A stretch of DNA of 64,000 bases. Origin: Escherichia coli (GTDB lineage Bacteria > Pseudomonadota > Gammaproteobacteria > Enterobacterales > Enterobacteriaceae). The DNA lies in NCBI RefSeq assembly GCF_044324785.1, contig NZ_CP172127.1; one strand, 5' to 3'. A program made the translations under genes and the position numbers. Position 1 is the first letter of the stretch; every line of letters starts with the position of its first letter. The notes beneath the pieces are model-generated. The model worked only from the letters and a program-made list of their open reading frames with translations, had not been told where the DNA came from and did not search any database. Below are positions 63,243 to 63,268 of the stretch, piece by piece.

Positions 63243-63268
63243 GTGCTCTCTCCTGAAGGGGAGAGCAC
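63243..63268 (+). other. stem-loop in the fusA-tufA intergenic region (no U-tract, so not an obvious terminator)
   Basis: gtgctctctcc tgaa ggggagagcac. Confidence 0.5.

Follow-up and report, generated by a model that had tools for sequence, protein, structure and literature searches.

The spacer between fusA and tufA of Escherichia coli carries a hairpin that is real and is under selection as a sense-strand mRNA structure across enteric bacteria. We analysed it within a 64-kb stretch of E. coli DNA (the window, to which all positions below refer). A first-pass annotation of this stretch had picked out the stem-loop and had preferred a role in RNA processing, RNA stability or translational regulation to one in termination. 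Our results indicate that the most likely role is that of an ordinary hairpin for RNA stability or processing within the operon, and not that of a terminator. In its more specific form, which we hold with about even confidence, this reading makes the hairpin a transcript boundary and stability element of the sense mRNA inside the str operon (rpsL-rpsG-fusA-tufA), belonging to the 3'-protective or processing class without a U tract. The evidence comes mainly from compensatory base changes in the stem and from an abundant in vivo RNA 3' end at its foot.

A stable, single-copy hairpin in the fusA-tufA spacer

The fusA-tufA spacer of E. coli is 70 nt long, and the hairpin lies inside it (Table 1). 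The first-pass annotation had described an 11-bp stem with a single mismatch and a tgaa loop. The stem and the loop stand, but the mismatch does not: T63251 and G63260 form a U·G wobble in RNA, and all 11 positions pair. The offsets given there were exact: the first base of the stem is the 26th nt past the fusA stop, and the tufA GTG begins 20 nt on from the stem end. The reported absence of a U tract was borne out as well. The 8 nt on the 3' side of the stem, TATAGTAA, contain three T and are A or U at seven of the eight positions. The tail in full is TATAGTAAGGAAT, again without a U tract, and a terminator consensus scan made no call at this hairpin in E. coli.

Table 1. Positions of the hairpin and of neighboring features in the window
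Feature	Position	Strand	Remarks
Promoter-like TTGACT-16-TAAACT	62859-62886	+	consensus scan; expected start about 62893
rpsG-fusA sister hairpin	61027-61061 (core 61030-61057)		U-poor, -19 kcal/mol
fusA CDS	61103-63217	+	stop TAA at 63215-63217; 25 nt separate the stop from the stem
TTAA box	63227-63230 (GGGTTAA 63224-63230)	+	16 nt upstream of the hairpin; from conservation
fusA-tufA hairpin	63243-63268	+	11 pairs including one U·G wobble (63251·63260)
Hairpin 5' arm GTGCTCTCTCC	63243-63253	+	from sequence
Hairpin loop TGAA (RNA UGAA)	63254-63257	+	from sequence
Hairpin 3' arm GGGGAGAGCAC	63258-63268	+	from sequence
A/U-rich single-stranded linker	63269-63287	+	holds the tufA Shine-Dalgarno; presumed cut or trimming site
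RNA 3' end in vivo	63272	+	4 nt past the last stem base, ...GAGAGCAC-UAUA-3'
tufA Shine-Dalgarno AAGGA	63275-63279	+	from sequence
tufA CDS	63288-64000	+	GTG start at 63288; CDS continues past the window end

The folding of the hairpin was compared with that of dinucleotide shuffles. The 26-mer folded at -19.0 kcal/mol, against -7.0 +/- 2.1 kcal/mol for the shuffles (z = -5.9), and none of the 200 shuffles was as good. The whole 70-nt spacer gave a z of -2.4. A search of the 64-kb window for hairpins with stems of 11 bp or more and no more than one G·U pair returned 30 hits, or about nine loci per strand, compared with 1.1 hits (both strands summed) in dinucleotide shuffles of the window. The fusA-tufA hairpin was recovered by this search on the plus strand only. 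As DNA, its sequence is a near-perfect 26-bp palindrome.

Most of the other hairpins of at least 11 bp in the window were obvious terminators. Long perfect hairpins were located at 7903-7930, 28347-28381, 49924-49951, 50124-50152, 56726-56752 and 58016-58047. Those at 56726, 58016 and 7903 are flanked by runs of A and T, as is usual for bidirectional terminators, and 28347-28381 is a GC-rich palindrome of 13-15 bp. On the minus strand, from 63294 to 63267, three overlapping promoter-like matches (the best being TAGACA-16-TATAGT, 10/12) are directed into the hairpin. These matches lie in the A/T-rich ribosome-binding-site region of tufA and are probably due to chance.

The locus is nearly invariant within E. 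coli. The 301 bases around the hairpin were found at an identity of at least 99% in 5,424 of the 5,429 records that matched, which cover 5,425 of 5,426 complete genomes, and the annotation places them between fusA and tuf. The hairpin sequence itself occurred at one place per genome in 5,425 of the 5,426 E. coli genomes, 5,401 of them at an identity of at least 99%, and no annotation lay beneath the match in any of the 5,425. A single variant record carried C63248G, which breaks a pair; as one record, it is uninformative. Within the window, the hairpin gave one match when up to three mismatches were allowed. A REP element or other dispersed palindromic repeat was excluded by this single copy in the window and in each E. 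coli genome. A known curated RNA family was likewise ruled out as its identity, as Rfam 15 gave no match over 63218-63287 at E-values up to 10.

Covariation and conservation across lineages

For the comparative analysis, one genome per species was searched with the C-terminal 250 residues of EF-G, which yielded 80 loci, and the fusA-tuf spacers were extracted. Among the Enterobacterales, 40 distinct fusA-tufA spacers were aligned with MAFFT. The helix was paired in 95.7% of the cells of this alignment, compared with 45-66% when the 3' partner was slid by 1-3 columns. Compensatory double changes were present in 10 of the 11 hairpin pairs. In total, 68 double-change cells were observed, compared with 19.4 +/- 3.8 in shuffled alignments, and none of the 500 shuffles matched the observed number. 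When RNAalifold was applied to the 40 sequences, it independently predicted the hairpin helix and no other. Covariation across the enterobacterial str operons, which the first-pass annotation had named as a check on the structure, is thus clearly present. RNAalifold also predicted that the linker and the Shine-Dalgarno segment are unpaired, and AAGGAAT is invariant in the alignment. The minimum free energy fold of the single E. coli sequence contained a long-range pairing that would mask the Shine-Dalgarno (GGGUUAA with UAUAGCC, and CC with the GG of the Shine-Dalgarno). This candidate was rejected, since RNAalifold showed the hairpin only.

The strand on which selection acts could also be read from the alignment. 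The helix contained 40 G·U or U·G wobble cells versus 7 C·A cells, the latter mostly in misaligned rows, and the sense fold was better than the antisense fold in 29 of the 40 Enterobacterales spacers and in 11 of 13 from the Pasteurellaceae. The many G·U and few C·A cells, together with the better folding of the sense strand, indicate that selection acts on the mRNA rather than on a DNA palindrome or an antisense transcript. From the Enterobacterales alignment we derived a covariance model, which scored the hairpin in the window at 79 bits on the plus strand and 19 bits on the minus strand.

Hairpins at the same position were also found outside the Enterobacterales. In the Pasteurellaceae and Aeromonas, they comprise 9-13 bp (-12.6 to -18 kcal/mol), with stems unrelated to those of the Enterobacterales. 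The median folding z of the spacers was -2.9 in the Enterobacterales, -4.7 in the Pasteurellaceae and -2.5 in Aeromonas. Across the three lineages, the stems fell into 12 families (less than 70% arm identity), and the loops were unconserved, with more than 30 different forms. The stem ended 17-24 nt upstream of the tuf start in 59 of 60 spacers; its start, 10-31 nt past the fusA stop, was looser. The covariance model retrieved the copy in the window and two weak endosymbiont remnants, and it did not find the Pasteurellaceae hairpins. The latter are therefore positional analogues, for which sequence homology is not demonstrable. In the AT-rich reduced genomes of endosymbionts, the hairpin was degenerate or lost, and it was absent from the spacers of Sutterella (39-48 nt).

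The sequence that follows the stem differed among lineages. The 8 nt after the stem contained on average 4.1 T in the Pasteurellaceae and Aeromonas versus 1.8 in the Enterobacterales, where the tails have 1-3 T. The counterparts in Pasteurella atlantica and Haemophilus haemolyticus fit the terminator consensus (a 12-bp stem and at least five T in 8 nt), and the Comamonadaceae have a full terminator after fusA. In four Comamonadaceae loci (L070, L076, L077 and L080), we also observed an irregular conserved hairpin (24 bp over about 65 nt, GGTCTGCGATCC...GGTGCAGACC) between this terminator and tuf, within the roughly 100 nt before tuf. It has five compensatory pairs, among only four sequences. 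It matched no Rfam family at E-values up to 1 and no tRNA, and it is possibly an uncharacterised tuf leader.

A second conserved element lies upstream of the hairpin. The tetramer TTAA was present in all 40 Enterobacterales spacers, compared with about 6 of 40 in shuffles, and in 38 of them it was located 14-17 nt before the stem. What stays constant is its distance from the hairpin, not that from the fusA stop, and it is independent of the reading frame. The full RNase E-like motif RN↓WUU was found at this box in 30 of the 40 spacers; in E. coli the motif is only partial.

RNA ends and transcription through the junction

RNA end mapping was the other check that the first-pass annotation had put forward, and published data were available for it. 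Adams et al. (2021, eLife, PMC7815308) performed Term-seq on E. coli MG1655 grown in LB to OD 0.4, to OD 2.0 and in M63 medium. At OD 0.4 in LB, an RNA 3' end was recorded at MG1655 position 3471345 (minus strand), 16 nt upstream of the tufA GTG (PMC7815308). We checked the transfer of this position to window position 63272 against the MG1655 gene positions. The end lies immediately past the stem (Table 1) and is abundant, with 77,552 reads compared with 89,838 at the operon terminator after tufA (3470093) (PMC7815308). Its Rho score of 0.86 was classed as 'No', and its intrinsic-terminator score was 1.95, where values of at least 3.0 suggest termination (PMC7815308). The end was called in one of the three growth conditions, that is, neither at OD 2.0 nor in M63 medium (PMC7815308), and the supplementary table of Adams et al. 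lists it as "orphan" without comment. Taken alone, a 3' end at +4 cannot tell trimming from weak termination.

Other ends were recorded nearby. At OD 2.0, a 3' end was found on the tufA start codon instead (window 63289), and in that condition the start codons of tufA, rpsG and rpmB each coincided exactly with a 3' end (PMC7815308). These start-codon ends look like a stationary-phase phenomenon. Inside fusA, a further 3' end at window 63081 (3471536) had 56k reads at OD 0.4 and 182k at OD 2.0 (PMC7815308). RNA coverage across the hairpin was uninterpretable, as reads from tufA map to tufB too. The Salmonella TIER-seq supplements, searched by coordinate, gave no base-resolution RNase E site here, only a count per UTR, and the text of the CsrA CLIP paper does not mention tuf or fusA.

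Transcription through the junction was considered next to these ends. Table S4 of the Salmonella TIER-seq study lists a tuf 5'UTR at 3620969-3621364 (396 nt) that starts 325 nt inside fusA. This start corresponds to window 62893, 7 nt past the promoter-like sequence at 62859-62886, which is presumably one of the known secondary promoters of tufA. The same table assigns to this UTR four RNase E sites and one CsrA-CLIP peak, with positions not given. According to a recent review, fusA is coupled to rpsG and repressed by S7, whose known site is in the rpsL-rpsG spacer, and two promoters within fus drive tufA and explain its escape from this repression; the hairpin is not mentioned. Efficient termination at the hairpin would be self-defeating, because the fusA-internal promoter feeds tufA through it. 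The preference of the first-pass annotation for processing or stability over termination is accordingly supported by the covariation, by a 3' end with a sub-threshold terminator score and by this need for read-through.

We also inspected the neighboring junction and the second tuf gene. The rpsG-fusA spacer contains a sister hairpin, which is conserved with different stems in the Enterobacterales, the Pasteurellaceae and Aeromonas. It usually ends 34-44 nt before the fusA ATG (about 40 nt in E. coli). A Term-seq 3' end is present at its base, at window 61062 (3473555), with 106,444 reads (Adams et al. 2021, PMC7815308), a Rho score of 1.24 ('No') and a terminator score of 1.37 (PMC7815308). 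The sister hairpin is not adjacent to a ribosome-binding site, so a shared role specific to the ribosome-binding site is unlikely. The rpsG gene upstream of it (60536-61006) encodes 156 aa in the window versus 179 aa as annotated in MG1655, which indicates an E. coli other than K-12 as the source of the window. In the leader of tufB, we found no comparable hairpin near -20, which indicates that the element is a feature of the junction rather than of tuf translation in general.

Candidate functions of the hairpin

Dar and Sorek (2018, PMC5927463) described protective 3' structures as stable hairpins with a Term-seq end directly downstream, no uridine tract and no Rho effect. The fusA-tufA hairpin shows four of the five defining features of the 3'-protective class: a boundary hairpin, a 3' end 4 nt downstream, the lack of a U tract and of Rho dependence, and conservation in relatives. 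The str operon is in the S2 set of that study but absent from S3, which holds the differentially decaying operons (PMC5927463). Such a measurement is confounded here by the internal promoter and by reads that tufA and tufB have in common. With malE-malF and the other structures of this kind, the hairpin shares its intercistronic position, its stability, the immediate 3' end, the missing uridine tract, the missing Rho dependence and the conservation in enterics. In contrast, the malE-malF structure is a REP repeat, whereas the fusA-tufA hairpin is single copy and, unlike most of the Dar and Sorek structures, which lie within the downstream ORF, intergenic. The polycistronic mRNA of Bacillus subtilis is split at this gene junction as well, where the fusA-tufA spacer is cleaved by the RNase Y/Y-complex (bioRxiv 10.1101/2025.06.27.661978). 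The nuclease is a different one, and there is no sequence relationship.

On the 3'-protective reading, the events at the junction may be outlined as follows. RNA polymerase would pass the hairpin, as suggested by the lack of a U tract and by the fusA-internal promoter, which must reach tufA. From geometry and established footprint sizes, the hairpin could stay folded on translated mRNA, because 25 nt past the fusA stop it would be beyond the reach of the terminating ribosome; at tufA the stem, which ends at -20, would just meet the border of the 30S footprint at initiation. The A/U-rich linker, the ribosome-binding site or the body of tufA could then be cut by an endonuclease, for which RNase E is the most likely candidate. 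The cut may fall at UAUA↓GU (with U at +2), or farther downstream with subsequent 3'-to-5' trimming, for which PNPase and RNase II are candidates. By halting the exonucleases, the hairpin would give rise to the abundant 3' end that is observed 4 nt past the stem. Decay of the rpsL-rpsG-fusA segment could then proceed independently of that of the tufA segment. The sister hairpin between rpsG and fusA, the lack of a hairpin at tufB, the cleavage of the B. subtilis junction and the decay of the hairpin in endosymbionts are supporting context. The absence of the str operon from S3, the call of the 3' end in one of three growth conditions and the ambiguity of an end at +4 count against the protective reading, as do two further observations. 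The distance to the tuf start is tighter than that to the fusA stop, which a purely 3'-protective role does not predict, and the Pasteurellaceae counterparts that fit the terminator consensus look terminator-like.

The terminator-like counterparts lead to a leaky, U-poor intrinsic terminator or attenuator, at which some polymerases would stop after fusA and thereby set the ratio of fusA-ending to tufA-containing transcripts, the +4 end being a trimmed product. We consider this unlikely. Like Rho-independent terminators and attenuators, the hairpin is a GC-rich stem-loop at a gene end (11 bp, -19 kcal/mol) with an A/U-rich tail (7/8), an abundant 3' end adjoins it, and counterparts with T tracts occur in the Pasteurellaceae (P. 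atlantica and H. haemolyticus) and after fusA in the Comamonadaceae. The T-richer tails of the Pasteurellaceae and Aeromonas also favor it, but in the Pasteurellaceae they may just mirror AT-rich genomes. The E. coli hairpin differs from such terminators in having no U tract, no call in the scan and a published score below the threshold, and it must be read through by transcripts from the fusA-internal promoter. Moreover, tufA requires higher, not lower, expression than fusA. The tight distance to the tuf start, for its part, would be expected of a translational insulator, which would keep the Shine-Dalgarno free of upstream pairing, could block fusA ribosomes from sliding in, and would leave EF-Tu synthesis de novo and independent of the S7-controlled rpsG-fusA. 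The predicted unpaired state of the linker and the Shine-Dalgarno fits this role, as does the escape of tufA while fusA is coupled to rpsG and S7-repressed, as stated in the review. We nevertheless regard it as rather improbable: tufB makes the same protein at a high level without such a hairpin, the sister hairpin ends about 40 nt from the fusA ATG and thus outside the 30S footprint, the constant spacing within each order is partly due to shared ancestry, and the 3' end is left unexplained.

The upstream TTAA box raises the opposite polarity. In a papB-papA-like arrangement, RNase E would cut at the TTAA/GGUUUAA box, and the hairpin would shield tufA mRNA from 5'-end-dependent attack or from RNase E scanning out of the decaying rpsG-fusA RNA. 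The invariance of the box, its set distance from the stem, the RN↓WUU motif in 30 of 40 spacers and the RNase E sites within the Salmonella tuf 5'UTR are consistent with such 5'-side protection, and a papBA-like 5'-protective class is defined and documented in E. coli (Dar and Sorek 2018, PMC5927463). In both systems, the spacer before a more highly expressed downstream gene holds a stable hairpin preceded by a conserved A/U-rich box. They differ in that the RNase E site of papB-papA is upstream of the hairpin, whereas the only end mapped at fusA-tufA lies past the stem and is a 3' end. E. coli itself does not have the full WUU motif, and about 15 unpaired nt would remain 5' of the stem. For ompA-type 5' hairpins, about 15 unpaired 5' nt are too many for protection from a 5' sensor. 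We therefore think that this 5'-side role has little chance of being correct. A specific site for a protein (CsrA, S7 or EF-Tu), or a DNA palindrome bound by a regulator, is very improbable. The CsrA-CLIP peak in the Salmonella tuf 5'UTR and the near-perfect 26-bp palindrome point in this direction. However, the stems are wholly different among lineages and the loops take more than 30 forms, which leaves no conserved recognition sequence, and the 40 G·U cells would turn into A·C mismatches if the pairing were that of the opposite strand or of a DNA palindrome. A CsrA site would have GGA in a loop or single strand within a conserved motif; here the GGA is paired in the 3' arm and the variable loops have none, and the CLIP peak more likely reflects the AAGGAA of the Shine-Dalgarno. 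The known S7 site is elsewhere.

Given that the 3'-protective element is a well-described kind, the hairpin will not surprise a specialist, and the gain is incremental. The hairpin itself is unannotated and outside Rfam. Our literature search found no earlier account of it; the fus/tufA sequence papers of 1980-1990, which were outside the search, may note the dyad. A bolder version can be drawn from the two U-tract-less hairpins that flank fusA and the fixed TTAA box. They might form a dedicated, anciently conserved 'operon punctuation' module that splits the str mRNA into units, each with its own decay and its own translation. In this module, the fusA-tufA hairpin would be a barrier to exonucleases, RNase E scanning or sliding ribosomes and would uncouple EF-Tu from the S7 feedback on rpsG-fusA. 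The module would be a new cis-regulatory RNA family, in an operon that ranks among the most highly expressed. This is a speculation that we rate as unlikely.

EF-Tu and EF-G are among the most abundant proteins of the cell, and the ratio between them is important for growth. In the textbook account, the escape of tufA from S7 feedback relies on the fusA-internal promoters alone. A hairpin that is maintained by compensatory changes and is followed directly by an abundant RNA end would extend this account to the post-transcriptional level. The fusA-tufA hairpin also offers a clean, mutable intergenic test case for the partition of operon mRNA by protective hairpins, and the Enterobacterales alignment from this analysis could seed an RNA family.
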